The notes beneath the pieces were generated by a model. The model saw only the letters and a list, made by a program, of their open reading frames with translations, was not told the origin of the DNA and searched no databases. A program made the translations under genes and the position numbers. A stretch of 64,000 nucleotides of DNA from a virus. The stretch is from the IMG/VR virus record IMGVR_UViG_3300044655_002046. One strand, 5' to 3'. This document shows, one piece after another, positions 12,471 through 63,106 of this stretch (position 1 is its first letter; every line of letters begins with the position of its first letter).

Positions 12471-12477
12471 GGCAAAA

Positions 12478-13062: not shown

Positions 13063-13063
13063 C

Positions 13064-37626: not shown

Positions 37627-37654
37627 AGTTTAAAAATATGCGGGGGGTGAGGAA

Positions 37655-38968
37655 TTATAAACCAGGGAAGAATAACTCTCCTTGAATACCGAGGCGCTCA
37701 TTGATTTGCGCTACGGTACAGGGGGTTATGTGACAAACGCGATAGGGGAACTTGAAGTAGGGTAGACCAGCATTACCCATCTGAACCGCGATACCAGGTG
37801 CTGCCGGAGGAGGAACATCAGTAACAGTACGAGTCCATAAGCCGGGGCTATCAATACTGTTTTCACTAGAGCAATACTGAGTTCTGCCTGGTGCTTCTAC
37901 GTTGCCATCGCTATCAAGGAAGCTGAGAGCTACAATTTTGTTCTTAGGCCATACGCGCTTCTCAACACCATCAACGGGATCCTTATAGATAGTATCTACT
38001 ACATGGACGTTGACTCCCGCAATAGAGAGGATCTCACCGCGAGTACCTAATACTAAGCCCATGCCAGTTCCCAACCCACCAGGAGGGAGGGGACCAAATG
38101 ACCCGCCATTGCCGTTGGCATCAATTGTGCTGTCTCCAAACACTGCGCCGAGCTTAGGAATAATACCGCCTTGTGCAAGACGAGCTTCTTCAGACATGAG
38201 AATAACATCGCGCATCTCGGGACCAATATACATATCGGTGATATCCGATTTATTGGTATCCTTAAACCAACGGTTTAGTCGACGCACGAAGTTGGAGAGA
38301 GCAAACTGAGGATCAGTGATAGGGACGCCTGCACTAGGAGTACCGCCTGCGTTTAAATCAATAAGGTTACGGAATAAATGGGCCTCATTCCGGCCACGGT
38401 AACCTTGGGTAATGTTGAAGCCAAAGAAGTTACGCGCGGGGATGTACGCGGGGGCCTTAACGCGAACTCCAGAACGAGGATCAGTGTAATTGATACCGCC
38501 GAGCATCATAGCGGCGCGGAACACGTTCCAGGTTAACTGGTGCTTCTGCATCTGACGGGTGAGTTTCTTCTCAATCTGTTCAGCAGCAGTAGCGCGCTCA
38601 TTATTAGTACCCTCTCTTACAGTGTTATTGAGCTGAGCATAACTCATGTACATAGATTGACGGATAGGGAGGGGCTGATAAGACTGGCGGTACACTGTAT
38701 AACCGTCGTCATCAACGAATAGATCAGGTCTACCCCACTCAACCACAGGGAAAATAGTAGTGACACCTTCGATGATGTGCTCAGCAATGACAATGCGCTC
38801 AGCAATCGTCTCATCGGGGAATACAGTGCTGAGAGGAGTCTCAGGTAACTTAGCGAGAATAGAGCGGGCTAACTCAGTGTATACGGGCTCCCGAGGGAAC
38901 GTAGTGTTGTCTACTAAGTAGGGGCTGCTGATAAGCTCTTGAAAGTTGGGGCTTCGAATATCTGCCAT
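37655..38968 (-). CDS. Major capsid protein (HK97 fold, cap_E-like)
   Basis: Follows the protease/scaffold gene; LARSIL...PLSTVFPDE, size 437 aa, VWPKNKIVAL. Confidence 0.85.
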   Translation of the reverse strand: MADIRSPNFQELISSPYLVDNTTFPREPVYTELARSILAKLPETPLSTVFPDETIAERIVIAEHIIEGVTTIFPVVEWGRPDLFVDDDGYTVYRQSYQPLPIRQSMYMSYAQLNNTVREGTNNERATAAEQIEKKLTRQMQKHQLTWNVFRAAMMLGGINYTDPRSGVRVKAPAYIPARNFFGFNITQGYRGRNEAHLFRNLIDLNAGGTPSAGVPITDPQFALSNFVRRLNRWFKDTNKSDITDMYIGPEMRDVILMSEEARLAQGGIIPKLGAVFGDSTIDANGNGGSFGPLPPGGLGTGMGLVLGTRGEILSIAGVNVHVVDTIYKDPVDGVEKRVWPKNKIVALSFLDSDGNVEAPGRTQYCSSENSIDSPGLWTRTVTDVPPPAAPGIAVQMGNAGLPYFKFPYRVCHITPCTVAQINERLGIQGELFFPGL

Positions 38969-38994
38969 ATTAGTGGGAAGTTAGTAAATTAGGA

Positions 38995-40344
38995 CTAGAC
39001 CTTGGATTTCTTAGCTGAATCCCAGTTCTTCTGGGCTAGCTCGCGGAGCTGGGCTTCTAGACCAGATGAGCGGGTGGCTGCGCTCTGGCCAAACTGTTGC
39101 ACTACTACAGGCTTACTGTTAACAGCAATATTTAATAGCTCCTCTAATTCATCGGTTACATCACGCTCGCCGCCAGCCTCTGTAGAAAGCTTGATAACAC
39201 GAGAACCACTGTAAAGTGCATCGGCTAGTAAACTGAAGCGCTCAATTAACGCAGGGGGTACGCCTCTGCTTTGTAAGCGCTTAGCACGGTTGGCCTTCTC
39301 TCTAACACTCACCTCAGTAGAATAGGCCTGAGCTACAGACTGAGTCAGATCTAGCTTCTCCTCGATAGTCTCTAACTGTTTAGTGAGGGTAGCTATTACA
39401 TCAGCCTGGGCCTTAGTCATAGCTGCTAGCTTCTCTTCGTACACCGCTTCTAGACTAACGCGCATGTTCTCAAGGGCATCTTTAGCCGCTGCTAGTGAGG
39501 GCTCCGTTGCCTCGTCGGTCTCGGTCTCGGGAGTTTCCATAATAATCTCATCCGGCATAGTTGTTTGATTAGAAATTGTTTGTTCAGGTATAACTGCGCT
39601 TAATTTAAACACTGCTCCGGCTATTGTTTGTGGGCTCTGGCTAAGTGCCACTACCTTCTCTCTATGAGGAATGAATGGAGCATTAGTTAATGCAGTTCTA
39701 ACTAATACAGTTCCTCGATTAACTCCTGTTTTCTTATCAGTGAAATTAGTCAGGAATTCGCCTGAGCTGTATTCGTACTCTCCCCTGCTAACTGCATCAT
39801 AGGCTTCTGGCTTAGGCGTGTAGTAACCTACCAGCATGTCGCCTTCAATGCGTAACTGCTCGAGATCCCCGCGCTTACGCTGACCATCAAGTGCCTCTGC
39901 AGTCTCTATGAATTCATCGTAGCTATTAACGTCGGAGCTCTCAATAGGGTGGCCGAATGTAAGATACGGCTCAAAGCCTAGTACATCATTCTCGAAGTTA
40001 GTAACAGCCTCTGTGAATTTCTCCATGGTGAAGGTTACCTCACCGTAGGTATTGTGCTTCCAGGTGCCTATCTTAGCCTGCGGTACTCTCAGCTTACCCT
40101 TTAATAACTCTATACTGGCGTCCCCTACGGCAGCTGAGCTGAATAGTCTGGGCCCGTCAGGTTCTATATTAGTTGGGCAGAGGTCGTCAGTGCACTCTCT
40201 GGATGCTTCAACCTTTATGAGCGTAGTCTCAACCGATGGAGCCTCGGCTTCGTTAGGCGTGGTCCCTGATACCTCGAAGGTAAGGTTATTTATAGTTAAT
40301 TTATCCTCTACAATAGAGGTATCAATAGTTTCGGGCATAAGCAT
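38995..40344 (-). CDS. Prohead protease/scaffold (Mu gpI-like)
   Basis: GTWKH..YGEVTFT, LTFGH, YEYSSGEF and VLVRTALTNAPF, followed by a coiled-coil scaffold tail. Confidence 0.8.
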   Translation of the reverse strand: MLMPETIDTSIVEDKLTINNLTFEVSGTTPNEAEAPSVETTLIKVEASRECTDDLCPTNIEPDGPRLFSSAAVGDASIELLKGKLRVPQAKIGTWKHNTYGEVTFTMEKFTEAVTNFENDVLGFEPYLTFGHPIESSDVNSYDEFIETAEALDGQRKRGDLEQLRIEGDMLVGYYTPKPEAYDAVSRGEYEYSSGEFLTNFTDKKTGVNRGTVLVRTALTNAPFIPHREKVVALSQSPQTIAGAVFKLSAVIPEQTISNQTTMPDEIIMETPETETDEATEPSLAAAKDALENMRVSLEAVYEEKLAAMTKAQADVIATLTKQLETIEEKLDLTQSVAQAYSTEVSVREKANRAKRLQSRGVPPALIERFSLLADALYSGSRVIKLSTEAGGERDVTDELEELLNIAVNSKPVVVQQFGQSAATRSSGLEAQLRELAQKNWDSAKKSKV

Positions 40345-40399
40345 AATTGCTAGTGGCTTTACTAGCTTGTATTAATTAACATCACTAAAGGTAGGAAAT

Positions 40400-40798
40400 A
40401 TGCAATTAGAGAGATTATTGGTTTTAGAGGCTCTAGAGCGACTTCTAGTTCGCCGTATTCGTAATGCGACTATTGAGGGTACCTATCTGGTCTTTAACCT
40501 CGATGAGGGGTTGAGTACCAAGCCGTATAAGATAAATATAGCTACTCTATTACACGGCACGCTTGAGTCTACATATTATAATTACCTGGCCGGCCGTATG
40601 CTAACTGAGGGCTACACCTATACTGCAATTGAGGGAGGTGAGATAGTAGAGTCACCTCGTGGTAATATCTATCAAATACATGGCACAGACTGCAGCTGTC
40701 CTCAGCGAGGTTACTGTAAGCATCTCATACTGCGGGACTGGCACCTGACATACCGAGCGCGGCAGAATGATCTACGGCATCGCGTAAAACCTAAATAG
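40400..40798 (+). CDS. SWIM zinc-finger protein
   Basis: DCSCPQRGYCKHL (CxC-x-CxH). Confidence 0.75.
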   Translation: MQLERLLVLEALERLLVRRIRNATIEGTYLVFNLDEGLSTKPYKINIATLLHGTLESTYYNYLAGRMLTEGYTYTAIEGGEIVESPRGNIYQIHGTDCSCPQRGYCKHLILRDWHLTYRARQNDLRHRVKPK

Positions 40799-42131
40799 AA
40801 CTAATAGCATCGGGCAATCCAGTAATGGAGCGTATGTGGTTCTTATCTCCATCTACTAGGAAGCCCATGTCGTGCATTTGCTTAATGGCTCCTATTAGTG
40901 CTGCTAGATCAGTGGCCCGCCCCGGTAAGCGAGTTATATAACCTGTGTTGTTAGCTAGTGGGTATAGCGCGGGGTCGAAGTTCATCTTGATTAGATTACC
41001 TATGACCTGTTCAGTGAAGGCATGTATCACTGTATCGAATATACTGTTGATCTTACCATCGAAGAGCTCTAGTTGAATCTCACTGGCCCGCCCTGTGCCA
41101 AAGGTAGTCTCTTTATTTTGCATCAGTAGGTTAGGAATACCCATACCCATTAGCATATTGCTATCGCAGAGTGATATGGCTCTCTCGAATGAGTCGCTGA
41201 AGTTATTACCTGTAGTTAGGGCCCCCACCTGTACCGGCTGCTCCTTACTGAGCTGTGTTAATACTAAACCAGAGTCAGTGCTCAGACGCCGGAGTGCGTC
41301 CTCTGCCTGCTCCGCTATAGTAGTGGTTATCTCTGTACCATCGGGGGCCTCCTCCACTACGCCTGTATTACCAGGCGGTACTATTACGTATATGAGGGGG
41401 GTACCATAGCGGTCTAGAGCTATGAGCATCATATCTCGGAAGGCCCGCTTAAAAATAGAGTAGTCTAGCACGCTAGTGAGGCAGCTGGTACCCCAAGGAT
41501 TATTACCCTTAGTGTTGTAGTTAATGAATAGCCGTTTGTTACTAGGGAGCCGTACGTGACTACCTACCACGTCTACTCTCTTAGGGGGGTCTACTATTTT
41601 ATAGGGAGGCAGGGGTACCCAGTAGCCCGACTTGTATTGACTAGCTGTTACTGTATCACCATCTACTATACGGCCATTGTCGTTAGTGACGAGCATAACC
41701 TGTAGTGGATGATAATTGACTATGTCATCTAATACTGTAGCCGGCATATTATCCCGCGTGCCGTGGGCGTATATCTGCTCGCTTAAGCTGAAGCCATACG
41801 TCATAATAGACTTCACGCAATGAGATATCCATGTCTTGGCTCTATTGCGTAGTTGATCATCTATGAACTTCTTAATGCGCTTATCCTCGTGTTGATAGGG
41901 CCCGACCTTATTAAGCACGCTCAGTGCTATAGAGTCGAGGCCCTGCGCTATGATAGGCTCTACCTGCGCTGCCTCATCCCAGGCACTCAGCTGCTGGTAG
42001 GTAGGCTTGCCTGCTCGTCTATAGCCGCCATCCTCAGATAGATAGCTAGTGGCTAGACCTAGGTGCTCCATAGCGTAGATAGTGCGCCGGCGTATTGCTG
42101 GCGTGGGGGCATTGCGTACTTCCATATTCAC
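40791..42131 (-). CDS. Portal protein (DUF935/Mu gp29-like)
   Basis: SIMTYGFSLSEQIY, GNNPWGTSCL, LIALDRYGTPLIY and FGTGRASE..LELF. Confidence 0.88.
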   Translation of the reverse strand: MNMEVRNAPTPAIRRRTIYAMEHLGLATSYLSEDGGYRRAGKPTYQQLSAWDEAAQVEPIIAQGLDSIALSVLNKVGPYQHEDKRIKKFIDDQLRNRAKTWISHCVKSIMTYGFSLSEQIYAHGTRDNMPATVLDDIVNYHPLQVMLVTNDNGRIVDGDTVTASQYKSGYWVPLPPYKIVDPPKRVDVVGSHVRLPSNKRLFINYNTKGNNPWGTSCLTSVLDYSIFKRAFRDMMLIALDRYGTPLIYVIVPPGNTGVVEEAPDGTEITTTIAEQAEDALRRLSTDSGLVLTQLSKEQPVQVGALTTGNNFSDSFERAISLCDSNMLMGMGIPNLLMQNKETTFGTGRASEIQLELFDGKINSIFDTVIHAFTEQVIGNLIKMNFDPALYPLANNTGYITRLPGRATDLAALIGAIKQMHDMGFLVDGDKNHIRSITGLPDAISSI

Positions 42132-42613
42132 CAGAATGAGGGTCTTTTAATCTCAGATAGTGGGTTAGAGTTCATATTCTCTAAAGATTTAGTCATTTCT
42201 TCTAGGGATTGCTTTTGTTTCTTATTCTGATTCTGAATATAGTTAGACGCTGCTTGATAGGCGGCCTCCTGCATATATTCGTCTTGCTGAATGAACTCCT
42301 GCAATCCTATACCAGTGACGCTAGCTATTATAACCCACTTCTCTAGTTGATAGTACTTGGTATAGTTCTGCGCCACCTGAACTACATAGTTATGTTTAAT
42401 AACGGGTAGATAGGGGTCAGGTGGCGGCGATACTATAAACCTAGCACTAGGGAATATACTGCCAGCAATTTGTAGCAGAGGGTCGGCTATACGCTGGAGC
42501 GCGGCATTCTTACAGAATAACTCAGTGTTTATTAGATGGAAGTACGTTAGATGAATGTTTAGATGACTTGCTTCGATTTTGTAGTCGTAGCTCGCGTGGA
42601 AACACCCATAAGC
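42128..42613 (-). CDS. T-part of the tail assembly chaperone G-T fusion (entered by -1 frameshift)
   Basis: The frame of the track ORF 42128-42376 stays open, with no ATG, for 79 more codons up to the slippery site at 42613-42619. Confidence 0.75.
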   Translation of the reverse strand, partial: AYGCFHASYDYKIEASHLNIHLTYFHLINTELFCKNAALQRIADPLLQIAGSIFPSARFIVSPPPDPYLPVIKHNYVVQVAQNYTKYYQLEKWVIIASVTGIGLQEFIQQDEYMQEAAYQAASNYIQNQNKKQKQSLEEMTKSLENMNSNPLSEIKRPSFW

Positions 42614-42921
42614 TTTTTTGCCTCCGCTTGGGCCTTCTCGCGCCCTTTATCGTCAATGAGGTATAGGGTACTGAATACCTCCATGAAATATTGTTGATCC
42701 TCGACACACCAGTCGTCGGTGATACCATCGGGTTCGTAATCGTAGGCATCGCTATCCAGGACCCGGCCATTGATGTTAACAATACAACGGATAGCTAGTA
42801 CTTCTTCAGGTAATAGGCCGCACTCCTTATTATAATTCTTGATCATCTCGCGACGGTCGTGAACCAGGGGGGGCTTGAAGCTAACCTCGAATTGACCCTT
42901 CGGTAATATGATAGTGTGCAT
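42559..42921 (-). CDS. Tail assembly chaperone (G-part)
   Basis: 120-aa acidic protein with in-frame GCA AAA AAG near its 3' end. Confidence 0.75.
   Translation of the reverse strand: MHTIILPKGQFEVSFKPPLVHDRREMIKNYNKECGLLPEEVLAIRCIVNINGRVLDSDAYDYEPDGITDDWCVEDQQYFMEVFSTLYLIDDKGREKAQAEAKKLMGVSTRATTTKSKQVI
42613..42619 (-). other. -1 ribosomal frameshift heptamer A_AAA_AAG
   Basis: Correctly phased X_XXY_YYZ; the -1 frame is open to the stop at 42128, giving a 264-aa product. Confidence 0.8.
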
Positions 42922-42977: not shown

Positions 42978-45900
42978 ATGAGGCCGCTGCCCGCTAAAGT
43001 AGGCAGTTTTTCAGCTATAGCTCTATTTAATAGGTTTTGTACTCTACTGATGGACATCAATAGCTCACTATTCTCTAGTAATCGATTTAATGACAGTGCT
43101 CGTTGGAATGCCCTCTACCGTATCCCTGAGGATACCCGTAGTAGATTACTGCAGGGCTATAATCCTCTAGAAGTACTAATAGACCCTAGCTTTATACCGC
43201 CTGGTACCGACGCCTCTATGGAGATGGTACTAGCTGATGCTTTCTATGATAGGGTAGTTGATACTAGTAGTAGTCGAGCTGCTATCTCGAGCCTATGGGA
43301 TAGTATGGAGGGCCCCGCTCGTCAGGAGTACTTCGAATACATGGCAGGTATGGGGGGTACAGCTACTCCTGCTCGTACCCAGACTGATGATATGCTTAAT
43401 TGGATGGCCCAGCGAGATCAACTCACTATGCGGTCTAACCTAGAGGGCATAGATGATGAGCGTCGCCTACTACTAGAGAATCGCTCTAGCATGTTGGATC
43501 TATTATCTGATGATGGTTATAATGTACGGCCGGGCCTACTACCTATTGCCGCGCTAGTGGATACAGCAGAGAGAGAACTGCGTATAGACATCTATCAGTT
43601 CCAGAATGAGCGCGCTATAGATATGGTGGGTGAGGCTGTAGAGAGAATGGCCGGTAGTGGTCTGGGCGGCCGTGTGGTAGTTCGTATGGCCGCTCCATCT
43701 GAGACTGATGGGGACTCTCGTAAGAATTATGATATCCTGGGCCCCAACATTATGTTTTATAAGCGGCTGTCTTATCTACGGGACCGCTTCGGGACTGATG
43801 TAGATATAGATATCCAATGGGCTGATAGACGTAATCACCCTAAGTTCTTCGTCAGTGATAGGGCCGCTCTCATAGGTACAATGAACGTGACGCGGCCACT
43901 AGGACAATCGCTAGAGCAGGCTGGCTCTAACGTAGAGTTCACGCGGACTATACGCACTAACCTAACTTATAGCCAGATTCAGAATGCCGATAGGGGCATA
44001 CTGCCTGATAGTATGACGCGGGCCGATAAGTTATATCTACAGGCCCGTGACATTATGGATAGATTAGATGGCGGCGATAGAGTTCTATTCACGGGACAGG
44101 ATAGTATAGGTGGTGCCGGCGATGTTAATACTGCTCTACGCCGCCATGTAAATGAGCTCACTAATATACCTACTATCGATGGCAAGACAGGTCGCCTCTA
44201 TATGGTACTTAATCAGGTGTTCCTGCTCAAGCACGATAAGTCCCTGATGGCAAGTCAGCTTAAAGGAGAGATGGGAGAGAACCCTGAGTCGGAGAGAATA
44301 CTATCGGGTTACCAGGCCTATATGCAGGCCAGAGAACAGGAATACTCTAAACTCCAGGCTAATGTACTAGATCTAATTATAGGGGGCCGCGCTCGTGTAG
44401 GTGTAGATGTACATACCTATCGAGAGGATGTGCAGGACCCCATGAACCGCTTATTACTGAGTAACCAGAAACTGGCTGCTGAGTTATCTCAGTCTAATTA
44501 CGACGTAACCCGTTGGATTAAGGAAAACCGGGGCTCTGATGTTAGTGATATGGCTAACGTGCTAAACACGTATGGCTTCTATAGTGGAGATCTCGAGGGT
44601 CGCCAGCGTATGGCTCGACAATTATTAGCTATAGCTAGTGGTAATATAGAGCCGACTGCAGTGCCGCGCAGCCACGTTAAGGCATACCTGGCGACTTATG
44701 AGAATGACGTCATAAATCAAGGGGCCGGGCTGGGCATGCAGAATATAGACAATCGCCAGACCTTCGATATCCTGGGCGGTAGTCAGGGATCCAGTAACTA
44801 TGGTCTTAATTCTCTGGCAGATAATGATGACCCCCTGAGCCGTCGACTGGTTAACCAGGAGATCAATATGATTTACGATAGGGTGAGTGGGACAAGCCCC
44901 CTTAGTCTCTCTGATGAGGAGCGCGATGAGGAGAATAGAGAATACGCGCGGGCCTTCTATAAATTACAGAGCTCCCTGGGAATACAACGAATAGGTGAGA
45001 CTCATTATAGTGGACGGGACCGTAGGTCTATGTACGGTAATAGAGTAGATAGAGGAGCCATACTGGACCTAATCGACGAAATAGAGAGAGTTAATGCAGC
45101 TGTCGGCTCTGAGGTCATAGGTATACAGCAAGACTACGATGGTCTTAATCTAGAGGGCGCTACTCTAACCCTCAATAAGGGTCTACCTACTCAGCGTATA
45201 TATAAATGGGGCGCCTATAAGGACGCTAGTGGACGGGGGCCCGCCGCCTTCATAGATATAAGCGGGGGCCGTCAGATAGAGTCAGCTGAGCTATTCAATA
45301 CTGGCACAATGCGCATGGAGCTGGCTATAGAACATGATGGTCGCGGAGTGGGCTTGGATCCTCGTAGACGCCTGCGCCTTAATCCACTGGATGTAGTAGT
45401 GGGCCTCATGAGCTCTATTGCGTTAGAGAGTGAGACTACTCGTTTAGTGCGGGCCCCACTTATAGAGTACCAGAGGTACTATAGCCCTGATAATATACGC
45501 GCCGCCCAGGCCGTACAGCGTAACCCCGGCGCTCAGTATCAGAGTGCCATGAACTTCTTCGAGAAGCTACTGGGCGTGAGTGGTCTTGACTTAACCACAG
45601 ATGAAGGTACCAGTAGAGTACAGCAGGGCCTCAGTAACCTGACCTCCTTGTTCTACTCTAGTGATCCTGATCTAGATCGCATACGAGACCTAGCGAGTAT
45701 ATCTCGTACTGATAGTCGCCGTAGAGTGGCCTTCGAGGAACTATCTAATATATTCCTTACCTATGCGCGGTCTATAGATGAGAGGGGCCAGCCCATAATA
45801 GACCTAGAGGCACATCGCAGAGGAGCCCTTAATCTTGCCGCTAATAAGTTATATGAGATTATGGATCAGGGCCCCATGTTCGCTGATGTGTTATTCAAGT

Positions 45901-48900
45901 TCATCGAATCCCAGAGTGATAGTCGCTATAAGACTGATGTGCGCGAGAGGTTAAAGGAGATACATGATAGCGCATTCGCCGCGTTCCTTACTCCTACGCA
46001 GGCTCGTAATTATGGTACTACGCAGGCAAGTAATCGGTTACTAGCCTATGGCTTTGGTCAGGGTAGGCAACCCGCTGGTATATCTATAGTTAATGCCGCG
46101 CTACGTCGTATTAAGGCTAATGATACTACCTTTAGTAATCTGAGTGCTTTCGCTTATACTGCTAGCCCATTGCCTATAGGCCCGGTATCTGACCTCGGTG
46201 TAGGTGATGATTTCCTCTTCGTACGAGTTGCTGAAGGTAACGTGAGTCCTACGACTACCGATGAGAGTCAGTACTTCACTGCCTATAGTAACGTGCTGCC
46301 TCTATCTCGCGGCGCTACTGCCAGTGAGGTATTCGACCTATCCATCATACGCAGTGCTGGTGTGGGGAATATCATACGGCGGGATGAGCTGAGTGAATAC
46401 ATGAAGGCAGTGAGTCACCTGGGTATAGACCGCTCTCTGCTAGAGGCAGAGTTCGATGCCCGCGGCGATAACCTGCTCAGGTTCTTCTTTGATCCTAATA
46501 AGCCGGACCAGATGCCTCAGCGTCTCAAGAACGTGATTGGTATGCGCCCCCTCATGGATATAAGTGAGGGTTACACACAGGTGCTGGAGCTAGTTAGTCC
46601 TATTAATACTGGTAAGGTTATACCTGAGTTGACTCCCGTTAGGTATCAGGCTCGCTACGGTGGGAGCAATGTAGATGTACTGCAGGGCAGTATGTATCAG
46701 GACGCATACCTAGCTGATCTGCGCGCAGGGCTAGAGGCACGAGGGCTAGATAGCAGTATCGTAGATGATAGCTATCGCTATGGTGCTATATTCAGTGGTA
46801 GAATATCGCGCTTCATGAGCAGTGAGGCGGCTGTAGAACTAGAGGCTATACGGGATGAGCTGGCCGACCGCCTGGGTATCGATAGTGAGGATATACCCAC
46901 CGAGGATGATAGCGTACTGGCCGAGCTATTCCGCGCTACTATAGTGCAATCTCAGCTCTTCGCTAGTAGAGAGCGGGGATTGATAGGCTCTGGACAGGCC
47001 CGCCCTACTGTTATGATTATGGCATTAGAGGGGGCCTATAGTGACTACGCGTATGCTAACCCATTACATAGGGTAAGACGTGGCTTCCTAGATCAGGCCA
47101 CTAAGAGCAGTAAGGCCAGTCTATTAGGGCGAGATTGGACATTCGATAATATACTAGTGAGTAGCGATGACCGCATTGTATTCGATGAGAGAGAGCAGCG
47201 CTACTATCTACTAGATAGAGAGGGGCGTCGTAAGCAGACCATCACTAGTCGTAGCGAGATGCGCGTATTCCTGGACCAGATAGAGAGTACATCTCGTAAT
47301 CCTAAGATGGGGGCCTCTATGGCTACTAGTGCCGCAGCAGGTATACGCGGCGAGTATGCTATTGAGCAACTACTACAGGTTAGTAGGCTGACTGGTAGCG
47401 ATGCTACTAATGAAGTGCAGGTGCAGATACAATTCCTGCGTACTCTACTTGAGGGCGGCTCCCGACGGGTAGAGGCAGAGCGCGGGCTAGCTAAGATAGT
47501 CCCTGTGTTCCTGAGTGAGGATATTATGCGTAGTGAGGTGTTCCCCACTATACAGCAGGGGGGCTATCATAGTGCTCTCGAGATAGAGGACATTCAGTAT
47601 ATAATTAGCCCCACTAATCTGAAGAGCTATGCATTCAACCACGGGGCCACTCTACTTACCTATAATGGTGGGGAGCTATTCCGTCGGGGGGTACTGGAAC
47701 GAAATGATCAACAGATAGCGGCGGCCCTGCTTTCCATAGCTGATTCGCGTCTCTTTAGTAATAGCAGCAATATTAATATAGACAGTGTTCATATAGAGAT
47801 AGCACAGTTGGCAGCGCAGGGGCGGCTCGGTAATTACTATCGTGACCTCTATATGTCTACTATGCTGGAACTTATGCGGAGCGGTAAGCTAGGAGATGAC
47901 TCACCTCATCTCGAAATAGGGAGGAAGCTAGTACGCGGGAGCGATGATGCTATTAATAGATTACAGAGTCCTGTTTTAAGAGCCATTGATATATCAGAGA
48001 TAATGGCCGCTCTGCGTAGTGGGACTAGTAGCGGGGCATTATCTGATAAGGTAGGGCTGATGGTAGATGCGGCAGATGCAGCGCGCAGGGGTTATGTAGA
48101 TACTGGGGCTATGGGCCGGGGCTTTGAGCGCGCTGCTTTAGCCGGTAACCTAGAGATTATGATGCAGCTCATGTCACTTAATAATACCCTAGAGCTCAAG
48201 ACCGCACCAGTGACTGGTAGCGATAGTATATCCCGCCACGCGTATGCGGCTATGAGCGCTATAGCAGGTGTTACGCAGGCAGATGAGATGAACATAGGCC
48301 AGGAGAACGTGGCCGCTATGCTCGATAGACTGAGTAATTACTCTCGCTACGTGGTGTTATATAATGCCGTGATGGGTAGTAGCTCTAAGGTGCCATTGAG
48401 TAGTAAGGACACTGCGCAATTAGAAATGCAGCATATAGTATCTAGCCCCTTCATGGCTAACGTGGATAAATTCAAGCGCGATGGTAGTGTCGATAGTATG
48501 CGTAGGGCTATCCTCGGTGTTATGAAGATGGCTATAGGGGCAGACCCCAATAAGATAGCGGTGGATGATATTCCTATGTATGACCTAGCTAGTCTGGACT
48601 TCCATGCTAACTCTACGTTGGGAGAGATACTACTAGGAGCGTATAATGATGCGCGGGCCCCACTGAGCGATATAACTAATCTACGCGAGCGATACCGGCA
48701 GTTCCACACTGCATTATCTCTACTCGAGAGCGCCAGTGATACTGACATGGTGTCATATACTAGAGGGTCGGGCCTCGATACTACTAATGTTACTCATACT
48801 ATACTTGATGAGATAGCGGCATGGGTAGGGCAACCTGCTGGGACTGATAGAGATACTCTGCGTAGTGTAGTGCGCCAGTCACTTCGTGTCCTGAAGAACG

Positions 48901-51900
48901 ATATATATGCCCACGCGTCTCGCTGGCGTCTAGCAGGGGATAAGGTATTGGGTGTAGAGGCTACTGAAGCTACCGTGCAGTCAATGGGCCAGAAGGGTCT
49001 TCGTCGTATAGCCTATGAGTTTCCCTCCTTCCGTATAGAGGGGAATAACGTTGTATTCAATACAACTATTAAGGATAGGGGATTTATCCTGAGTCCTGAG
49101 GATGTCAGGATAGCAGGTATCCAGTTCGGTAGTCACGAGAATGAGATAGCTGCTGCTACGGTAGATAAATGGATTATGCTGGCTCCCGGTAGTGCAGTAC
49201 GTGATATCTTCGAGAAGGTAGCCATTGAGTCTGGCTCGAAAACTACTATTGAACTGGAGGGCCTCAGTGATTTCCAGATACAGGAGTTGACTCGGTTCCA
49301 GGAACTCAACAACACTTATGAGGCCCGCGTTTATAATGACCTGGCAAGCTCGTATCTGCAGTCTATCACTGGTAATAAGATAGGTGTGACAGGTACTACT
49401 GGCGTGGGGGCCGCTAGCTGGTATGTACCTGTGCGCGGCGCCGTATTAGCAGAGGCTACTATGGAGCGCTTCGGTACGCGAGGTAGTCAGACACGAGAGG
49501 AGATACTCACTAGATTAGGAGACCATCTTAAGAATAACCTGTCTGTTATTGGCCAGTCAGGTGATAAGAGAATTGGGCGCAGGTTAATACAACAACAGAT
49601 ATACGCTATAACCGAGGGACTCAGTATAGCGGGCATGTATGGGCTGGAGACAGTAGTAGATAAAAGTAAGAACTTCCAGAGTAGGATAGCCGGTATAGGA
49701 AAACTAGCTCCTGCTTTACAGGCGGCTGAATATGCCCAATTAGAGATAGAAGTTAAGGCCGAGATGGATAGATTCAGTAGCATGAAATTCAGCGGCAGCG
49801 GGGATTCTCTGATATCTACTCTAGGTGAAGCCGAGATGGGCACAATACTAGAATCTCTGCCTGGAGCTAAGACTCATAAGTATATAGACCTGGGCCACTT
49901 ACCTGTTATTATCTCTGGGCTCGTGATAGGTAGTCAGGGCCCGGCCCGCTCTATCATACCTGATAATATGCGGATCTACATTGACACTAATGCATTAGGT
50001 AATAGGTTTGATAACCTGGATCTACTACAGGGCCGTATACGTAAGAATCCCATAGACCTATCCTTCTTCAGCGATACGCGCGGTAAGGATGGCGCTGAGA
50101 TGCTGAGTACATTCTCTACTAGACTAGATAGTCTAGAGAGAACTATTAATGATGTGACCTCTGCTGTAGATACGTACTTAGAGGGTAGGAGCCCGCGGGG
50201 CACTGATTTACATAATAGAGGTGGGGCCCTCATAACTCAGTATAGGAAGCTGGTAAGTGATGCAAATGCTGCCTATGCAGTGGAACTAGATACAGTAATG
50301 GCTAATCGTGCGGCGCGCGATTCATTATTCATAATGAATAGTACTCTGCAGGCTGATATGAGTATATTCTTCACTGAGCTGGAGTTAACGAGAGCCTGGA
50401 TTCAACGTAGCCCGCCTCCTGGTAACACCCATCTTGATAAGCTGGTGTTCGGACTAGATACACTCAATAGTATCAATAACATATACCGAGACCTGACAGG
50501 CAGTGGCTTTAACTTCTTTGATGATACTCGTAATAAGTCGTTGACTCTACTCAATCCCATCAGCTTTATAACTAGTAACCTAGGGGACTTCGATGGGGAT
50601 ACCTTCAGCGCTATATTCTTCAATTACTCTCAGATGAAGTTGCAGCGCGATGATATGCTGGAGCGTGCTAAGGAACGGCGGGAGATGGCATCTCAGGCCG
50701 CTGATCCCGCTAAGCGTACCATTCTAGAGAAGCAAGCTAGTGACCTAGAGACGCGCGCCAGTGCTCTACTGGATACTATACAGCAGGTAACTACTAATGC
50801 TAATTGGAATGAGTATACCGACTCAGTGTATAGCTGGGTAGCGGGCTATATGAAATTAGATAAGGGTATGCTGGAACAGAGAGGTATAGAGCATGCTCTG
50901 GTACTAGTAGAACAGGCCCGCGGTCTCTTCGGTATGATGGAGGATGTATATGCGCGTATACAGCCGGCCCATGAACCCCTATTAGAATTAATACAGCAGA
51001 GCAGAACTGATAGTGCAGTTGATATAGTTAATAGACTATCTACCTCTACAGACCAGAACATACTAACCGATCTCGTTAATAATCCCGATACGGGGCCGTT
51101 CGTGCGGGCTAGTCTACATGATATCCTGAGCGCTACAGGTAATGATCAGGAAGAGAAGGCCTATGACTTCCTGCATAAGCTAACTGCTGTTAATACCCGC
51201 GATAATCTCAGCAAGTACATGAAGCGCGCTGATGGTAGTGTCATGAGCGGGGGCCAATTTGATATGATGCAGAAGGTGCTGGGTCAGGCAGGTAGTGTAA
51301 TCCTTGGTAAGACGTATAACACTACCGTGGGTATGCTATACGAGCGCTCCCCTATCATGGCCGTATCTCACGCACTAGAGAATAGCTCGGCTCTACAGGA
51401 TGACATACGCCGTATACTAATAGACCAGGGTATGGCAGGCGGCATGAGCGCAGGTGATGCTAATCTAGAGGCCGATAGTAAGATAGCGGATATACAGAGA
51501 CTGGCCCGCCAGAGTAGAACAGAGGTAGGTGAGGTGGGTACATTCCTGCAGGAGATACAGCAAATGCTGCGGGACGCTATTAAGCCTAAGATGGGGGGCG
51601 CTGAGTTCCTAGAGAACTTATCGCAGTACCATAAGCGTTTTGTAGATGCTGTCGATGATGTGGAGCGCCAGCGCGTAGTAGATGATATGAGTAAGCTACT
51701 ACCGTCTATAACTCCTCTATTTAAGTTAGATGCGTATATAGGGGCTCATAAGGAATTACTGGCATCAGCTACTAATGATGCTCAGGACTCTAAGATTAAT
51801 GATCTACTGACTAAACTATCCATTGGAGAGACTGAGCAGTTAGATTTATCCCGCCGATTGAGTGTACTGCGAGGAGATGAGATAGGTACTCATAGCCGCG

Positions 51901-53666
51901 CCCTCATAGCCAGTTATCAACTACGACAGGACCTAGTGGGTATGACGGCTGTATTCGCCTTCGAGCGGGCTATGCCAACCGATAAGGCAGGTAACCCCAT
52001 TAGCTCTGGTAGAGGCCTAGCAGAGAGTGTAGAGACCTACATAAATAGTGAGCCCGCGCGGGCCGCTCAGATAGATACTCTCATAGCAGGGGGCATCACT
52101 AATGGCCTCACCGAGATGGAGATAGAAGTAGAAGAGTTCCAGAACTTCACTCGTGATGTAATAGGAGATAAGCGCTTCCAGGATATGGGTACAGATACTA
52201 AGCGTTTATTAGCTATGAACTTCCTACGTAGTAGAGAGAGCGCATCGCTCTGGGCTAATACTGATGGCAGTAAGCTACTGCGCTTCGCTATTAATGATAG
52301 TACCCGCTCCACACTATACGGAGGACAATTAGAGGATGTACTCGGTCAGGATCTGATTACTGCCGCCGGTGACCCTACTGGCTCAGGAGCTAGTCCGCTA
52401 GTTAGATCACTGTTACAGGCTGTATCGGCCGGGAAGATAAACGAGCCTGAGCAGGTAACACGGGCCCTCGAGTCTCTTATGGATACCTTCACCCACGCTG
52501 ATGGTAAGCGCTACGAGATAGCAGATATCTTTAGTGTGTTACTCAATAGTGGTACCCCTAGCCCAGCTGATAAGGAGATAGCAGAGTTTATTCAGAAGAC
52601 AGTTCTCACAGATGAGACGGCCACTAGTCGATTGGTTACTTATGTTCGCGCTACAGCACTAGGTCAGCAGGTAGATACAGCTGATAGGCTAGTAGAGGAG
52701 CTACGGGACTATGAGAGCCGTGACGTCGATACGCGCTATATAAAGCTGCTACAGGATATGGGTGTCGCCCCAGATAGAGCTAAGGAACTATCAGCTCGTC
52801 GACGCGATTACCTACTGGCCGGCTCTCCTCCTGATATGGACCCACTGGACCCCAGCCCGCGACCGGCCCGCCCTATCTTACGTGTAGCAGATGATCTACC
52901 TATTCTTAACAATACTGCCGGTAATCTAATGGATGTACTTCTCTTCCCCCTAATGGCACTGGCAGGAGATATGATTAGTAGTGGTGGAGCCCGCCCCGAG
53001 GCAATGCAGCAGACTATGGGTAATATGCTAGGTGCTATGGCTTACGTAAGCGCCCCAGCAGGTAACCAGATGGGACGTTTCGCCGCAGGTACTCTGATGA
53101 GTATGGGATTCAAGGGACGCCTAGCAGGTCAACTACACGAGGACTATACAATCGGTGTCGGTATGCTACTAGCACAAGAAATAGCCTTTGGCGCAACAGC
53201 TCAACTCGCAGGCCGCTATATCATCAACCCATTCGTAGAGAAGACACTCGGTAAGGCCCCCACAATAGACTCTGACCCATTCGCGGGCCTGCGTAATGTA
53301 GCTAGCAACGTCATCACGGGAGCATTGAGTCTCGTATCAGCAGGCTTCGTAAATAAGTTACTCCATCGTGGGTTAGAGGTCAGTATGCAGCGTAGTATAG
53401 CCCCCGTGGCTCTAGACGCTGTTAGTGCCGGTATACGCGCTACTCAAGAGAGTATGAATCGAGCTCGCATGGAACGAGAGGATAATGCTGAAACCGAGGT
53501 CGTGGATGACACGGGCTCCCCTGTTGAGTTCTTCGTACAAACTATATTCAATGGTGATGAATACGACACTTATGACGCCCTCTACATGAGCGACCTAACA
53601 GTAGACCGTCCTAATAGTATGGCCTATCGAGATGAGAACGAGAGTTACTCTATGGATCTGGTTTAA
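42978..53666 (+). CDS. Giant virion protein (~3540 aa; likely ATG at 43050): PLD-like domains, putative two-barrel RNA polymerase, tape-measure-like C-terminus
   Basis: HPKFFVSD..GTMN (H287); HVK..GSSN (H566); ERGLAK1506 and ISPTNLK1549; QR2477SPP; NPISFITSNLGD2537FDGD; Gly/Ala-rich hydrophobic helices at ~52920-53360. Confidence 0.7.
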   Translation: MRPLPAKVGSFSAIALFNRFCTLLMDINSSLFSSNRFNDSARWNALYRIPEDTRSRLLQGYNPLEVLIDPSFIPPGTDASMEMVLADAFYDRVVDTSSSRAAISSLWDSMEGPARQEYFEYMAGMGGTATPARTQTDDMLNWMAQRDQLTMRSNLEGIDDERRLLLENRSSMLDLLSDDGYNVRPGLLPIAALVDTAERELRIDIYQFQNERAIDMVGEAVERMAGSGLGGRVVVRMAAPSETDGDSRKNYDILGPNIMFYKRLSYLRDRFGTDVDIDIQWADRRNHPKFFVSDRAALIGTMNVTRPLGQSLEQAGSNVEFTRTIRTNLTYSQIQNADRGILPDSMTRADKLYLQARDIMDRLDGGDRVLFTGQDSIGGAGDVNTALRRHVNELTNIPTIDGKTGRLYMVLNQVFLLKHDKSLMASQLKGEMGENPESERILSGYQAYMQAREQEYSKLQANVLDLIIGGRARVGVDVHTYREDVQDPMNRLLLSNQKLAAELSQSNYDVTRWIKENRGSDVSDMANVLNTYGFYSGDLEGRQRMARQLLAIASGNIEPTAVPRSHVKAYLATYENDVINQGAGLGMQNIDNRQTFDILGGSQGSSNYGLNSLADNDDPLSRRLVNQEINMIYDRVSGTSPLSLSDEERDEENREYARAFYKLQSSLGIQRIGETHYSGRDRRSMYGNRVDRGAILDLIDEIERVNAAVGSEVIGIQQDYDGLNLEGATLTLNKGLPTQRIYKWGAYKDASGRGPAAFIDISGGRQIESAELFNTGTMRMELAIEHDGRGVGLDPRRRLRLNPLDVVVGLMSSIALESETTRLVRAPLIEYQRYYSPDNIRAAQAVQRNPGAQYQSAMNFFEKLLGVSGLDLTTDEGTSRVQQGLSNLTSLFYSSDPDLDRIRDLASISRTDSRRRVAFEELSNIFLTYARSIDERGQPIIDLEAHRRGALNLAANKLYEIMDQGPMFADVLFKFIESQSDSRYKTDVRERLKEIHDSAFAAFLTPTQARNYGTTQASNRLLAYGFGQGRQPAGISIVNAALRRIKANDTTFSNLSAFAYTASPLPIGPVSDLGVGDDFLFVRVAEGNVSPTTTDESQYFTAYSNVLPLSRGATASEVFDLSIIRSAGVGNIIRRDELSEYMKAVSHLGIDRSLLEAEFDARGDNLLRFFFDPNKPDQMPQRLKNVIGMRPLMDISEGYTQVLELVSPINTGKVIPELTPVRYQARYGGSNVDVLQGSMYQDAYLADLRAGLEARGLDSSIVDDSYRYGAIFSGRISRFMSSEAAVELEAIRDELADRLGIDSEDIPTEDDSVLAELFRATIVQSQLFASRERGLIGSGQARPTVMIMALEGAYSDYAYANPLHRVRRGFLDQATKSSKASLLGRDWTFDNILVSSDDRIVFDEREQRYYLLDREGRRKQTITSRSEMRVFLDQIESTSRNPKMGASMATSAAAGIRGEYAIEQLLQVSRLTGSDATNEVQVQIQFLRTLLEGGSRRVEAERGLAKIVPVFLSEDIMRSEVFPTIQQGGYHSALEIEDIQYIISPTNLKSYAFNHGATLLTYNGGELFRRGVLERNDQQIAAALLSIADSRLFSNSSNINIDSVHIEIAQLAAQGRLGNYYRDLYMSTMLELMRSGKLGDDSPHLEIGRKLVRGSDDAINRLQSPVLRAIDISEIMAALRSGTSSGALSDKVGLMVDAADAARRGYVDTGAMGRGFERAALAGNLEIMMQLMSLNNTLELKTAPVTGSDSISRHAYAAMSAIAGVTQADEMNIGQENVAAMLDRLSNYSRYVVLYNAVMGSSSKVPLSSKDTAQLEMQHIVSSPFMANVDKFKRDGSVDSMRRAILGVMKMAIGADPNKIAVDDIPMYDLASLDFHANSTLGEILLGAYNDARAPLSDITNLRERYRQFHTALSLLESASDTDMVSYTRGSGLDTTNVTHTILDEIAAWVGQPAGTDRDTLRSVVRQSLRVLKNDIYAHASRWRLAGDKVLGVEATEATVQSMGQKGLRRIAYEFPSFRIEGNNVVFNTTIKDRGFILSPEDVRIAGIQFGSHENEIAAATVDKWIMLAPGSAVRDIFEKVAIESGSKTTIELEGLSDFQIQELTRFQELNNTYEARVYNDLASSYLQSITGNKIGVTGTTGVGAASWYVPVRGAVLAEATMERFGTRGSQTREEILTRLGDHLKNNLSVIGQSGDKRIGRRLIQQQIYAITEGLSIAGMYGLETVVDKSKNFQSRIAGIGKLAPALQAAEYAQLEIEVKAEMDRFSSMKFSGSGDSLISTLGEAEMGTILESLPGAKTHKYIDLGHLPVIISGLVIGSQGPARSIIPDNMRIYIDTNALGNRFDNLDLLQGRIRKNPIDLSFFSDTRGKDGAEMLSTFSTRLDSLERTINDVTSAVDTYLEGRSPRGTDLHNRGGALITQYRKLVSDANAAYAVELDTVMANRAARDSLFIMNSTLQADMSIFFTELELTRAWIQRSPPPGNTHLDKLVFGLDTLNSINNIYRDLTGSGFNFFDDTRNKSLTLLNPISFITSNLGDFDGDTFSAIFFNYSQMKLQRDDMLERAKERREMASQAADPAKRTILEKQASDLETRASALLDTIQQVTTNANWNEYTDSVYSWVAGYMKLDKGMLEQRGIEHALVLVEQARGLFGMMEDVYARIQPAHEPLLELIQQSRTDSAVDIVNRLSTSTDQNILTDLVNNPDTGPFVRASLHDILSATGNDQEEKAYDFLHKLTAVNTRDNLSKYMKRADGSVMSGGQFDMMQKVLGQAGSVILGKTYNTTVGMLYERSPIMAVSHALENSSALQDDIRRILIDQGMAGGMSAGDANLEADSKIADIQRLARQSRTEVGEVGTFLQEIQQMLRDAIKPKMGGAEFLENLSQYHKRFVDAVDDVERQRVVDDMSKLLPSITPLFKLDAYIGAHKELLASATNDAQDSKINDLLTKLSIGETEQLDLSRRLSVLRGDEIGTHSRALIASYQLRQDLVGMTAVFAFERAMPTDKAGNPISSGRGLAESVETYINSEPARAAQIDTLIAGGITNGLTEMEIEVEEFQNFTRDVIGDKRFQDMGTDTKRLLAMNFLRSRESASLWANTDGSKLLRFAINDSTRSTLYGGQLEDVLGQDLITAAGDPTGSGASPLVRSLLQAVSAGKINEPEQVTRALESLMDTFTHADGKRYEIADIFSVLLNSGTPSPADKEIAEFIQKTVLTDETATSRLVTYVRATALGQQVDTADRLVEELRDYESRDVDTRYIKLLQDMGVAPDRAKELSARRRDYLLAGSPPDMDPLDPSPRPARPILRVADDLPILNNTAGNLMDVLLFPLMALAGDMISSGGARPEAMQQTMGNMLGAMAYVSAPAGNQMGRFAAGTLMSMGFKGRLAGQLHEDYTIGVGMLLAQEIAFGATAQLAGRYIINPFVEKTLGKAPTIDSDPFAGLRNVASNVITGALSLVSAGFVNKLLHRGLEVSMQRSIAPVALDAVSAGIRATQESMNRARMEREDNAETEVVDDTGSPVEFFVQTIFNGDEYDTYDALYMSDLTVDRPNSMAYRDENESYSMDLV

Positions 53667-53925
53667 CTAGCTTCTCTATCATACGCAGTGGTACTATATT
53701 GCAGGTAACCACTAGCGTAGTACTGTGCACATATTGATTAGATAACTCTATCAAATTACCTGACTTATCGAATAGTGAAAAGCGACACTCGATAGGACCA
53801 TTAATGGGCGGCACCTCGAAACGAGTGAAGTGAAATGGCTCATCCGCAGCAGTCATCCCAGCGAATATTATAGTCGGTAGTGATGTTATCTCGTATGTGA
53901 GTCTGTAGTCTGAGAGTATTACCAT
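53650..53925 (-). CDS. Hypothetical protein
   Basis: ORF track; chain of overlapping minus-strand ORFs. Confidence 0.5.
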   Translation of the reverse strand: MVILSDYRLTYEITSLPTIIFAGMTAADEPFHFTRFEVPPINGPIECRFSLFDKSGNLIELSNQYVHSTTLVVTCNIVPLRMIEKLVKPDP

Positions 53926-54173: not shown

Positions 54174-54418
54174 CGTATAACTCCTGATTTCTTAAGGTAG
54201 TGTCCTAAGTAAACGTATAGTAACTTAAGGTGCTGAAGATAGGTACGGTTAACTCCGCGTAGTAATCTCTTACTTATTCTAATCCTAAGGATATCTATAT
54301 CAGCCGGTGTATCTAGGTAATATAAATGTAGGAGTTGGTGCATGTCCTCTGGCTCCAACTCCTCTAACTTCACCTTATCTAGTGGCGCTAGCTTATCTAG
54401 TAGTATTAGCTTGTCCAT
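54170..54418 (-). CDS. Hypothetical protein
   Basis: ORF track. Confidence 0.55.
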   Translation of the reverse strand: MDKLILLDKLAPLDKVKLEELEPEDMHQLLHLYYLDTPADIDILRIRISKRLLRGVNRTYLQHLKLLYVYLGHYLKKSGVIR

Positions 54419-60247: not shown

Positions 60248-60341
60248 AGGGGCTGTCCATTCCAACTAATCTAGGGATGCTCGATCCTCTTGGGTATTGA
60301 TATCACCTGCTTCAAGTAGGCGATGGTATAGCATTAATAAT

Positions 60342-62477: not shown

Positions 62478-62483
62478 TATTAT

Positions 62484-62705: not shown

Positions 62706-62708
62706 TAA

Positions 62709-62904: not shown

Positions 62905-62909
62905 AAGAT

Positions 62910-63101: not shown

Positions 63102-63106
63102 TAGTT

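Follow-up and report, generated by a model that had tools for sequence, protein, structure and literature searches.

A giant head-module protein of Microcystis myoviruses as a very probable single-chain RNA polymerase with a PLD-superfamily domain

The locus and the giant-protein family

The window is the whole 64,000-nucleotide stretch of viral DNA that was analyzed (IMG/VR record IMGVR_UViG_3300044655_002046). One intact ORF on its plus strand (42978..53666) encodes a protein of 3562 aa, the orthologue of gp080 from Ma-LMM01 (95.7% identity); the host of the phage is the bloom-forming cyanobacterium Microcystis, for whose toxic blooms Ma-LMM01 and its relatives serve as the model lytic viruses. 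Adjacent to the gene is a head module of capsid genes on the minus strand (36520..42921), which includes the major head protein (37655-38968), the portal (40791-42131), and a small conserved gene (42559-42921). Distant homologues have the same neighbors, the portal at 17 of 22 loci and the major head protein at 13 of 22, with many loci cut by contig ends. Family members range from 3,200 to 5,400 aa. In an alignment of 39 homologues, with 20 to 31% identity to the query over residues 1150 to 2900 and one at 49%, invariance is confined to 50 of the 2624 well-filled columns. The reading frame is intact in five close relatives, and comparison with these shows purifying selection, with about 3 synonymous codon differences per nonsynonymous one, rising to about 10:1 near the catalytic loop described below. 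Contigs from four RNA libraries span the gene in relatives, mostly at 90 to 99% identity; they were not used as evidence, because contigs cannot reveal transcription, strand, or level.

The only PHROGs match of the protein is PHROG 31006 (function unknown), i.e., its own family; Pfam gave no match to the full-length protein, and UniProt lists the Ma-LMM01 protein as "PLD phosphodiesterase domain-containing." MaMV-DH01 is said to be without an RNA polymerase (PMC9927357). This report and the family annotation bear out the suspicion, voiced in an earlier note on this DNA, that Microcystis myoviruses carry no RNA polymerase annotation. Our literature search, with the Ma-LMM01 genome paper and Iyer and Aravind 2012 outside its range, found no paper reporting the polymerase described here, and the P23-45 supplements do not name these phages.

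A PLD-superfamily domain, identified by motif conservation and Pfam, occupies residues ~185 to 630 (43530..44867, plus strand, as are all features of the protein given below). It contains two invariant HxK motifs, H287/K289/N303 (from 43836; 34/34 sequences) and H566/K568/N607 (from 44673; 36/36). Pfam PLDc_2 was found in 10 of 14 family members (best E value, 6.7e-8), and there were weak matches to the vaccinia nicking-joining enzyme, PLD4, NucT, DpdK, and DrmC. These two-HKD nucleases likewise carry two HxK...GSxN-type motifs; every catalytic H, K, and N is invariant here, but the second motif is without the aspartate. A search for stand-alone or shorter forms returned a cut fragment only, the domain being seen only within the giant family, and we found no report in the literature of a PLD domain fused to an RNA polymerase. 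We slightly favor a nucleic-acid phosphodiesterase acting on incoming or host DNA or RNA as its most likely function; a phospholipase acting at entry appears less likely. At the other end of the protein are Gly/Ala-rich, moderately hydrophobic helices (52905..53357). A hydrophobic 19-mer lies ~230 to 310 and/or 110 to 120 residues from the C terminus in 36 of 39 sequences, which suggests a membrane role for these helices.

The beta-like half

An AlphaFold2 model and fold comparisons assigned residues 980 to 1813 (45915..48416) as an RNA polymerase beta/RPB2-like half. The model, which covered residues 980 to 1900, had a pTM of 0.78. The best 50 Foldseek matches were all RNA polymerase second-largest subunits (top E value, 2.1e-4), and the top nine matches in a wide search with VIA were all beta/RPB2 (Z, 7.7 to 9.6); re-alignment of the model on RPB2 residues 439 to 1104 gave a Z of 10.3 and an rmsd of 5.4 over 348 residues. 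At the level of the predicted structure, a beta/RPB2-type fold is shown for this region. A flap-like insert lies within the beta barrel (residues 1368 to 1489; 47079..47444) and, as model residues 389 to 510, aligned with the E. coli beta-flap (3tbi_B, residues 830 to 1057) with a Z of 5.1 and an rmsd of 3.2 over 88 residues; this Z is modest by itself and is backed by the spacing of the residues that flank the insert. D1356 (47043..47045; 36/36 sequences) falls within the region aligned to RPB2, and order and spacing point to it as the equivalent of the metal-B residue, Rpb2 D837. It precedes R1497 by 141 residues, compared with 142 from D837 to K979 in Rpb2 (numbers from PMC2919709).

Basic residues of the same barrel, R1497, K1506, and K1549 (47466..47624), are conserved in 37/39, 38/38, and 37/37 sequences, respectively, and one further sequence has K in place of R1497. 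The earlier note had proposed K1506 (47493) and K1549 (47622) as the two conserved lysines of the second barrel. Both are conserved, but by order and spacing the first pair is instead R1497 and K1506, 9 residues apart, which we infer to be the equivalents of Rpb2 K979 and K987; K1549 would be the basic residue that comes after them, of the Rpb2 R1020 type.

The best structural matches of the half were cellular beta/RPB2 subunits and the non-virion beta-like subunits of phiKZ and AR9 (8jh3_B, 8qma_A, 6j9e_C, 7ogp_C, and 7s00_C; Z, 8.6 to 10.3 over 210 to 348 residues). These share the flap-like insert and the Asp-to-basic spacing with the 3562-aa protein at 6 to 10% sequence identity. They differ in that here both halves are in one chain, with large insertions, the PLD domain, and the hydrophobic tail, and in that R replaces the first lysine and RxxP replaces RxP. 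In phiKZ/AR9-type multisubunit enzymes, beta and beta-prime are split over several polypeptides, whereas here they occupy a single ORF; both halves are in one chain in nearly all homologues, an in-frame TGA splitting one locus.

The earlier note had placed the protein in the class of phi14:2 gp66, P23-45 gp96, and QDE-1. The single-chain two-barrel core agrees with that assignment, but the protein does not fit the class in every respect, because it has a flap-sized insert and its best matches are cellular and phiKZ/AR9 subunits; gp66, gp96, and QDE-1 are all absent from the matches listed for the beta-half model. The QDE-1/eukaryotic RdRP/YonO clade likewise has a single chain, and its first basic residue is also R (QDE-1 R738), but it is without the flap (SBHM) insert (PMC7824862), in contrast to the ~120-residue beta insert found here, and QDE-1 D709 and R738 are 29 rather than 141 residues apart. 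In its modeled fold, the beta half is nearer to the cellular enzymes than to QDE-1 or YonO. Protein gp66 of crAss-like phage phi14:2 (bioRxiv 10.1101/2020.03.07.982082) likewise belongs to a tailed phage and is a giant two-barrel enzyme in one chain, with a catalytic DxDxD loop. It is closest to QDE-1, with a connector of ~140 residues and the loop DFDID, whereas the 3562-aa protein has DFDGD, the flap-sized insert, and the PLD domain; among the listed matches there is no similarity to gp66.

Catalytic motifs and the beta-prime-like half

The catalytic segment R2477-x-x-P2480 plus D2537-F-D2539-G-D2541 spans 50406..50600, with R2477 at 50406 and DFDGD at 50586-50600. These motifs and the lysines above were all located where the earlier note had described them, in one ORF. 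R2477, P2480, G2482, D2537, D2539, G2540, and D2541 are each present in 39/39 sequences, so that DFDGD is conserved in orthologues, as the note had proposed to check. R2477 lies 60 residues before D2537 and by position is equivalent to Rpb1 R446. Of the proposed RxP...DxDGD pair, the arginine and the aspartate loop stand, but it is at +3 that proline is invariant (RxxP); proline at +2, the place of Rpb1 P448, is kept in 18/39 sequences, including the query. Eight invariant residues define the two-barrel polymerase superfamily (PMC2919709; the basic pair in QDE-1 is R738 and K743), and seven of these or their equivalents are invariant here and in the correct order. DxDGD arose in 11.5% of shuffles of the 3562-aa protein, and we rejected that motif alone as evidence for a polymerase, taking conservation as the proper test. 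RxxP followed by GDxDGD 45 to 80 residues on arose in 0.1% of shuffles.

The beta-prime-like half is separated from the beta-like half by ~320 residues, counted from residue 1813 to the putative start of the second barrel (~2132). Residues 2126 to 2160 (49353..49457; G2139 in 39/39) are probably the first strands of the beta-prime barrel, presumably so on account of their likeness to the beta-prime GKRVDYSG segment. Downstream, LGKxYN (residues 2776 to 2781) and QxxRDxIK (residues 2862 to 2869; together 51303..51590) are conserved in 37 to 38 of 38 sequences. From their positions and their apparent likeness to motifs of the RdRP/YonO/QDE-1 clade, they are candidates for the bridge helix and the trigger helix.

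A model of residues 1950 to 3000 left the barrel unformed (pTM, 0.39; catalytic-loop pLDDT, <50). With this model, Foldseek found no match in the PDB, VIA found helical bundles only and no RNA polymerase, and a search of BFVD yielded, besides the Ma-LMM01 orthologue, nothing but helical proteins of a generic kind; the ESM Atlas gave no usable match for residues 2121 to 2900. The AlphaFold and Foldseek comparison suggested in the earlier note thus placed the beta half with RNA polymerases and did not do so for the beta-prime barrel, although a failed model is no evidence against that fold. Since the barrel did not fold, the case for this half rests on motifs and a complex model. When residues 2455 to 2880 were modeled with residues 1330 to 1830 plus 2110 to 2180, the complex scored 0.83, and the best of three controls scored 0.07. 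Of 80 solved pairs, 58 passed the mark used for this score, compared with 2 of 110 mismatched ones; these counts are rough (own alignment, with Mg riding along). Runs agreed in at least 43% of contacts, and partner pLDDT was at least 62. In the prediction, a helical segment (residues 2642 to 2761; 50901..51260) packs against the beta half at its D1356 and K1549 loops; these loops are among the confident contacts, and the DFDGD loop is not. The partners were cut from a single chain, and resemblance to RNA polymerases of solved structure may account for the pass.

The earlier note had claimed a cryptic single-chain two-barrel RNA polymerase core, and that claim holds up through the invariant catalytic residues, the fold of the beta half, and the modeled contact of that half with the segment after the DFDGD loop. 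We conclude that the 3562-aa protein is very probably such an enzyme and is highly likely to be active. It would be DNA dependent; along the chain, the PLD domain comes first, the beta-like half with its flap second, the beta-prime-like half third, and the hydrophobic tail last. A structural ejection protein that has a polymerase-derived fold without the activity, or in which the DFDGD loop serves only to bind metal, would fit the unmodeled beta-prime barrel and the sequence searches: profiles gave no family link to any RNA polymerase, for the polymerase regions, neither phmmer nor alignment profiles found anything among PDB sequences but coiled-coil and antibody noise, and Pfam on the catalytic region of 24 family members returned noise only. 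However, both halves have their catalytic residues within the invariant set of 50 columns, and an inactive enzyme would not have retained precisely those positions, so we regard this reading as most improbable.

Thermus phage P23-45 gp96 (PMC10770324) is also a giant protein that contains DFDGD and hydrophobic segments. It is a siphovirus tape measure with an N-terminal RNA polymerase and a metallopeptidase domain, whereas here the gene belongs to a myovirus head module, the polymerase is central, and the extra enzyme is PLD. A polymerase fused to a tape measure protein, as in gp96, would account for the giant size, for the helical and hydrophobic C-terminal part, and for weak fold matches of residues 1950 to 3000 to tape measure proteins (E value, 6e-3 or worse). 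We consider it very unlikely here: the gene's place is in the head module, away from the tail genes, which run in the opposite direction, only ~650 residues follow the polymerase core, there is no PHROG tape-measure match, and the weak fold matches are generic helical ones (TM ~0.1).

Timing of expression and a possible role in early transcription

In Ma-LMM01, gp080 RNA was at 0, 0, 7.3, and 8.5 log2 FPKM at 0, 1, 3, and 6 h, and the gene clusters with middle genes (B5), apart from late head genes; RNA of the early genes gp054 to gp063 was already at 5.4 to 7.9 log2 FPKM at 1 h (PMC5780444, Table S3). Any early role of the protein would therefore require that it arrive in the particle. From the head-gene synteny, this timing, and the hydrophobic tail, packaging in the virion and early transcription by the protein are moderately likely, and a little more so if the enzyme is active. 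The earlier note's naming of it as a virion protein goes beyond what can be read from the sequence. The best overall explanation, in which we also place moderate confidence, is a PLD-fused RNA polymerase whose synthesis would begin in mid-infection. It would be packaged in the head at low copy and, once ejected into the next host, would transcribe the first phage genes independently of the host polymerase; the hydrophobic tail may aid its passage across the envelope or its anchoring there. Phi14:2 gp66 and P23-45 gp96 serve as precedents. For gp66, too, it is proposed that the enzyme enters alongside the DNA to carry out early transcription, the virion location being proven for gp66 only. We found no virion proteome and no rifampicin test of early transcription for these phages in the literature.

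An active two-barrel enzyme could instead be a non-virion polymerase made in mid-infection for the late structural genes, like YonO or the non-virion enzymes of jumbo phages. Expression of gp080 at 3 h, in the middle class, precedes a steep rise of the head and sheath genes at 6 h, the phage is without late factors of the gp55/gp33 type, and a specificity factor could dock on the flap-like insert. The fixed position in the head module, the great size, the hydrophobic C terminus, and the PLD domain fit an ejected protein better, and gp064, where present, is the more natural non-virion enzyme; we therefore judge this alternative rather unlikely. Ma-LMM01 gp064, a second candidate polymerase, adjoins the early cluster, and its RNA is likewise near zero at 1 h. 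It could share part of the early-transcription role, and Ma-LMM01 may follow the same two-enzyme plan as P23-45, with gp96 in the virion and gp64 outside it (PMC10770324).

All Ma-LMM01 promoters have been assigned to host sigma-70, from BPROM predictions, with the conclusion that the phage is transcribed throughout by means of this factor, and the origin of the three temporal classes was left open (PMC5780444). A two-barrel enzyme with no role in mRNA synthesis, which would pull in the genome by transcription or make primers or noncoding RNA, with PLD processing the product, would be consistent with sigma-70-like phage promoters, with a host transcription that is barely altered, and with the obligate fusion to an intact PLD active site. 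Yet the beta half resembles DNA-dependent cellular enzymes over ~350 residues, and the early promoters listed in that study match sigma-70 poorly, making this a distinctly unlikely reading. A 42-bp repeat upstream of Ma-LMM01 gp063 was considered as a candidate promoter array; its exact 12-base core occurred in at most one copy in 18 relatives, and degenerate copies were present in the one relative locus inspected.

One or two phage polymerases would answer how the three temporal classes arise. A single chain that joins a PLD domain to a beta half of cellular type, flap included, and to a beta-prime half is new to the literature searched and adds a branch to the history of two-barrel polymerases; it is a variant rather than a new category, because single-chain virion RNA polymerases are already known. 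More tentatively, and doubtful as a whole, a large cyanomyovirus lineage (Microcystis, Microcoleus, and Calothrix hosts) might eject this polymerase fused to an active PLD nuclease that prepares the template or processes the product, start its cascade at phage-specific hairpin-TAGTG cassettes, and hand over to the RdRP-like gp064. Were this true, the enzyme would represent a separate virion RNA polymerase lineage, between cellular and QDE-1-type enzymes, and the host-only model of Ma-LMM01 transcription would be overturned. The earlier note had missed gp064, along with the N-terminal PLD domain and the hydrophobic C terminus.

Invariant residues in the giant protein

The whole finding lies in a single ORF of 3562 aa (window 42978-53666, plus strand), whose core is very probably derived from an RNA polymerase (RNAP). 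Over the region searched, the product is 95.6-95.9% identical to hypothetical proteins of Ma-LMM01 (gp080), MaMV-DC, MaMV-DH01, and four other Microcystis phages; a hypothetical protein of Microcoleus phage My-WqHQDG is 25% identical to it. A Pfam search of the giant protein gave no match, and a PHROGs search returned its own unknown family and nothing else. The suspicion in the earlier note that Microcystis myoviruses carry no RNAP annotation was borne out, as the homologues are named hypothetical proteins and MaMV-DH01 is said to be without an RNA polymerase (PMC9927357). A literature search, in which coverage of the relevant papers was incomplete, found no paper naming gp080.

Homologue searches yielded 38 homologues, the complete ones being 3,200 to 5,400 aa long, with identities over aa 1150-2900 of 20-31% and, in one case, 49%. 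Most were found through matches outside the catalytic loop, so the motif did not decide which sequences entered the set. DxDGD by itself occurs in 11.5% of shuffles and on its own proves little. All motif positions claimed in the earlier note were found as placed in the one ORF, and its proposed residues proved to be conserved. Only 50 of 2624 well-filled alignment columns are invariant, and among these are D1356, K1506, K1549, R2477, P2480, and the DFDGD aspartates D2537, D2539, and D2541, while R1497 is kept in 37 of 39 sequences. The claimed RxP...DxDGD pair held only in part; the arginine and DxDGD are invariant, but the proline is shifted, being invariant at +3 and present at +2 in only 18 of 39 sequences. 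The two-barrel family is defined by eight residues, D-D-D, R446, and P448 of Rpb1 and D837, K979, and K987 of Rpb2 (PMC2919709), and seven of them have an invariant or near-invariant counterpart in the giant protein, in the correct order. Against five close relatives, the giant gene shows about three synonymous codon differences for each nonsynonymous one, a ratio that rises to about 10:1 around the loop. We consider it highly likely that the protein is an active enzyme; an inactive protein is the least probable of the alternatives.

A homologue (P0067, locus L011) lies on a 359-kb contig of the Calothrix sp. FACHB-1219 assembly, and members of the family thus occur in phages of several genera of cyanobacteria. 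Several records are classed as proviruses; taken with the Calothrix contig, this suggests that some of the lineage could be temperate. The gene is interrupted in two relatives. One in-frame TGA (L009:13796-13798) splits a homologue at about residue 1470, within the flap-like insert, which may reflect an error in sequencing, read-through, or a gene that is naturally split; in a close relative (L008:8242-16223) the gene lies in two frames with a break near 10188, probably an assembly error. In locus L020 and protein P0032 (5372 aa), and in P0025 (4838 aa), the two halves of the beta-prime-like region are separated by extra sequence, from several hundred to over 1,000 residues long.

Predicted folds of the two halves and a modeled contact between them

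The AlphaFold2 model of aa 980-1900, built from 37 sequences, has a pTM of 0.78 and a mean pLDDT of 76.5. Among the best 50 Foldseek matches, all were second-largest RNAP subunits (best E 2.1e-4). An independent structure search of 48,161 chains placed beta/RPB2-type subunits in the first nine rows (Z 7.7-9.6; next row, Z 6.0), including those of plastid, Pol I, III, and IV, bacterial, vaccinia, phiKZ, and AR9 enzymes. Upon re-alignment, model residues 1-833 matched RPB2 439-1104 (Z 10.3, rmsd 5.4, 348 residues). The Z values are moderate, yet all matches belong to the same class and cover a long colinear range. In addition, the segment aa 1368-1489 can be superposed on the beta flap of E. coli (Z 5.1, rmsd 3.2, 88 residues), and D1356 and R1497 are 141 residues apart, compared with 142 for D837 to K979 in Rpb2 and 29 for D709 to R738 in QDE-1 (residue numbers from PMC2919709). 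A flap insert is common to cellular and phiKZ-type enzymes and missing in RdRPs and YonO (PMC7824862), so the flap-like insert and the spacing assign the beta half to the cellular type; we infer its residue-level equivalences to Rpb2 from order and spacing. The fold of the beta half agrees with the two-barrel polymerase proposed earlier, but the comparison made then, with the virion RNAPs gp66 (phi14:2) and gp96 (P23-45) and with QDE-1, misses the cellular type. The giant protein probably works in like manner to gp66 and gp96; the QDE-1/YonO clade, however, is without a flap, and the phiKZ/AR9 class has split subunits, whereas the giant protein is a single chain.

The model of aa 1950-3000 was of low confidence (pTM 0.39; pLDDT below 50 at R2477 and at the DFDGD loop), and no RNAP was among its structure-search matches; profile searches with the polymerase regions likewise gave no RNAP match. 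A complex of aa 2455-2880, aa 1330-1830, aa 2110-2180, and Mg was modeled, and it scored 0.83, compared with 0.07 for the best control. As benchmarks, 58 of the 80 solved complexes and 2 of the 110 mismatched pairs attain the score mark, counts that apply only roughly here because we supplied our own alignment and included Mg. Runs had at least 43% of contacts in common, and the partner's pLDDT was 62 or higher. Two loops of the beta half, aa 1348-1356 (with D1356) and aa 1544-1553 (with K1549), make confident contacts with aa 2642-2761; no confident contact involves the DFDGD loop. The model supports a predicted active site shared by the two halves and does not demonstrate it, since all the pieces belong to one chain and the score may reflect resemblance to solved polymerases. 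Downstream of the DFDGD loop, LGKxYN and QxxRDxIK are nearly invariant, and from their position and likeness to RdRP motifs we take them to be candidate bridge and trigger helices.

Accessory domains, gene neighborhood, and expression

Two features of the protein had been overlooked in the earlier note. A PLD domain at aa ~185-630 has two HxK motifs in which H, K, and N are all invariant; Pfam PLDc_2 matches 10 of 14 family members (best E 6.7e-8), and weak matches link the domain to nucleases (vaccinia nicking-joining enzyme, PLD4, NucT, DpdK, and DrmC). The UniProt name of the Ma-LMM01 protein is taken from this domain, so the PLD was already known and the polymerase was not. A search for the domain outside the giant family found none, and no fusion of PLD and virion polymerase was found in the literature, within incomplete coverage of the relevant papers. 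One or two moderately hydrophobic helices lie near the C terminus in 36 of 39 sequences.

The giant gene adjoins portal and capsid genes in the window. The portal gene (40791-42131, minus strand; phrog_113 portal family, E 8.6e-38) corresponds to gp083, annotated "tail protein" in Ma-LMM01. Among 22 distant loci, many of them cut by contig ends, portal genes flank the homologue in 17 and a major head protein gene in 13. Small genes of no known function (53650-53925, 54406-55272, and 42559-42921, minus strand; 40400-40798, plus strand) accompany it in 12 to 17 of these loci and are candidate partners, e.g., chaperone, ejection, or specificity proteins. A fusion to a tape measure is improbable, slightly more so than an enzyme put to another use, which is itself very unlikely. 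Elsewhere, window 8000-14000 has a GC content of 34-38%, compared with 45-51% in the rest, a sign that the tail region may hold an acquired island, and ORFs of 1051 aa (14128-17283, minus strand) and 692 aa (60399-62477, plus strand) had no PHROG match.

In Ma-LMM01, gp080 RNA stood at 0, 0, 7.3, and 8.5 log2 FPKM at 0, 1, 3, and 6 h; early genes gp054-063 had already reached 5.4-7.9 log2 FPKM at 1 h (PMC5780444, Table S3). Newly made gp080 therefore cannot drive early transcription, which could come from a copy packaged in the particle; all Ma-LMM01 promoters have been ascribed to host sigma-70 (PMC5780444). The time course also fits a nonvirion late enzyme. This is the main rival, which we consider unlikely, and we lean toward an enzyme that travels in the particle and makes the first transcripts.

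A second candidate polymerase and hairpin cassettes

Past the window's end, beside the early gene cluster, Ma-LMM01 gp064 (1673 aa; L065:18812-23833, minus strand) is a candidate second two-barrel RNA polymerase on the strength of its motifs, RTP followed by EGDADGD. Homologues occur in relatives at L081:7992-13088 (plus strand) and G002:C1:42836-46612; across six, with identity down to 29%, RTP, EGDxDGD, and a K-x-R...K block are invariant. The ESM Atlas gave a lead to RdRPs at a score of 0.94, with low recognition; Pfam PF05183 stands on 57% of that Atlas cluster. One complete distant genome carries gp064; in another genome with the giant gene, it was looked for and not found.

Six hairpin cassettes, against a chance expectation of 0.2 per 64 kb, lie in window 60330-63900 (plus strand; T-runs starting at 60356, 62523, 62729, 62929, 63127, and 63854). 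Each precedes a small gene and comprises a GC hairpin, a T-run, T(A/G)GTG(A/G), a ribosome-binding site, and ATG; they may be terminator/promoter cassettes for a phage polymerase. All five copies in Ma-LMM01 lie within 43.7-50.9 kb, flanking gp064. Directly upstream of early gene gp063, Ma-LMM01 also carries 6.7 copies of a 42-bp repeat (L065:18272-18552), whose exact core occurs at most once in each of 18 relatives, with degenerate copies in L081.
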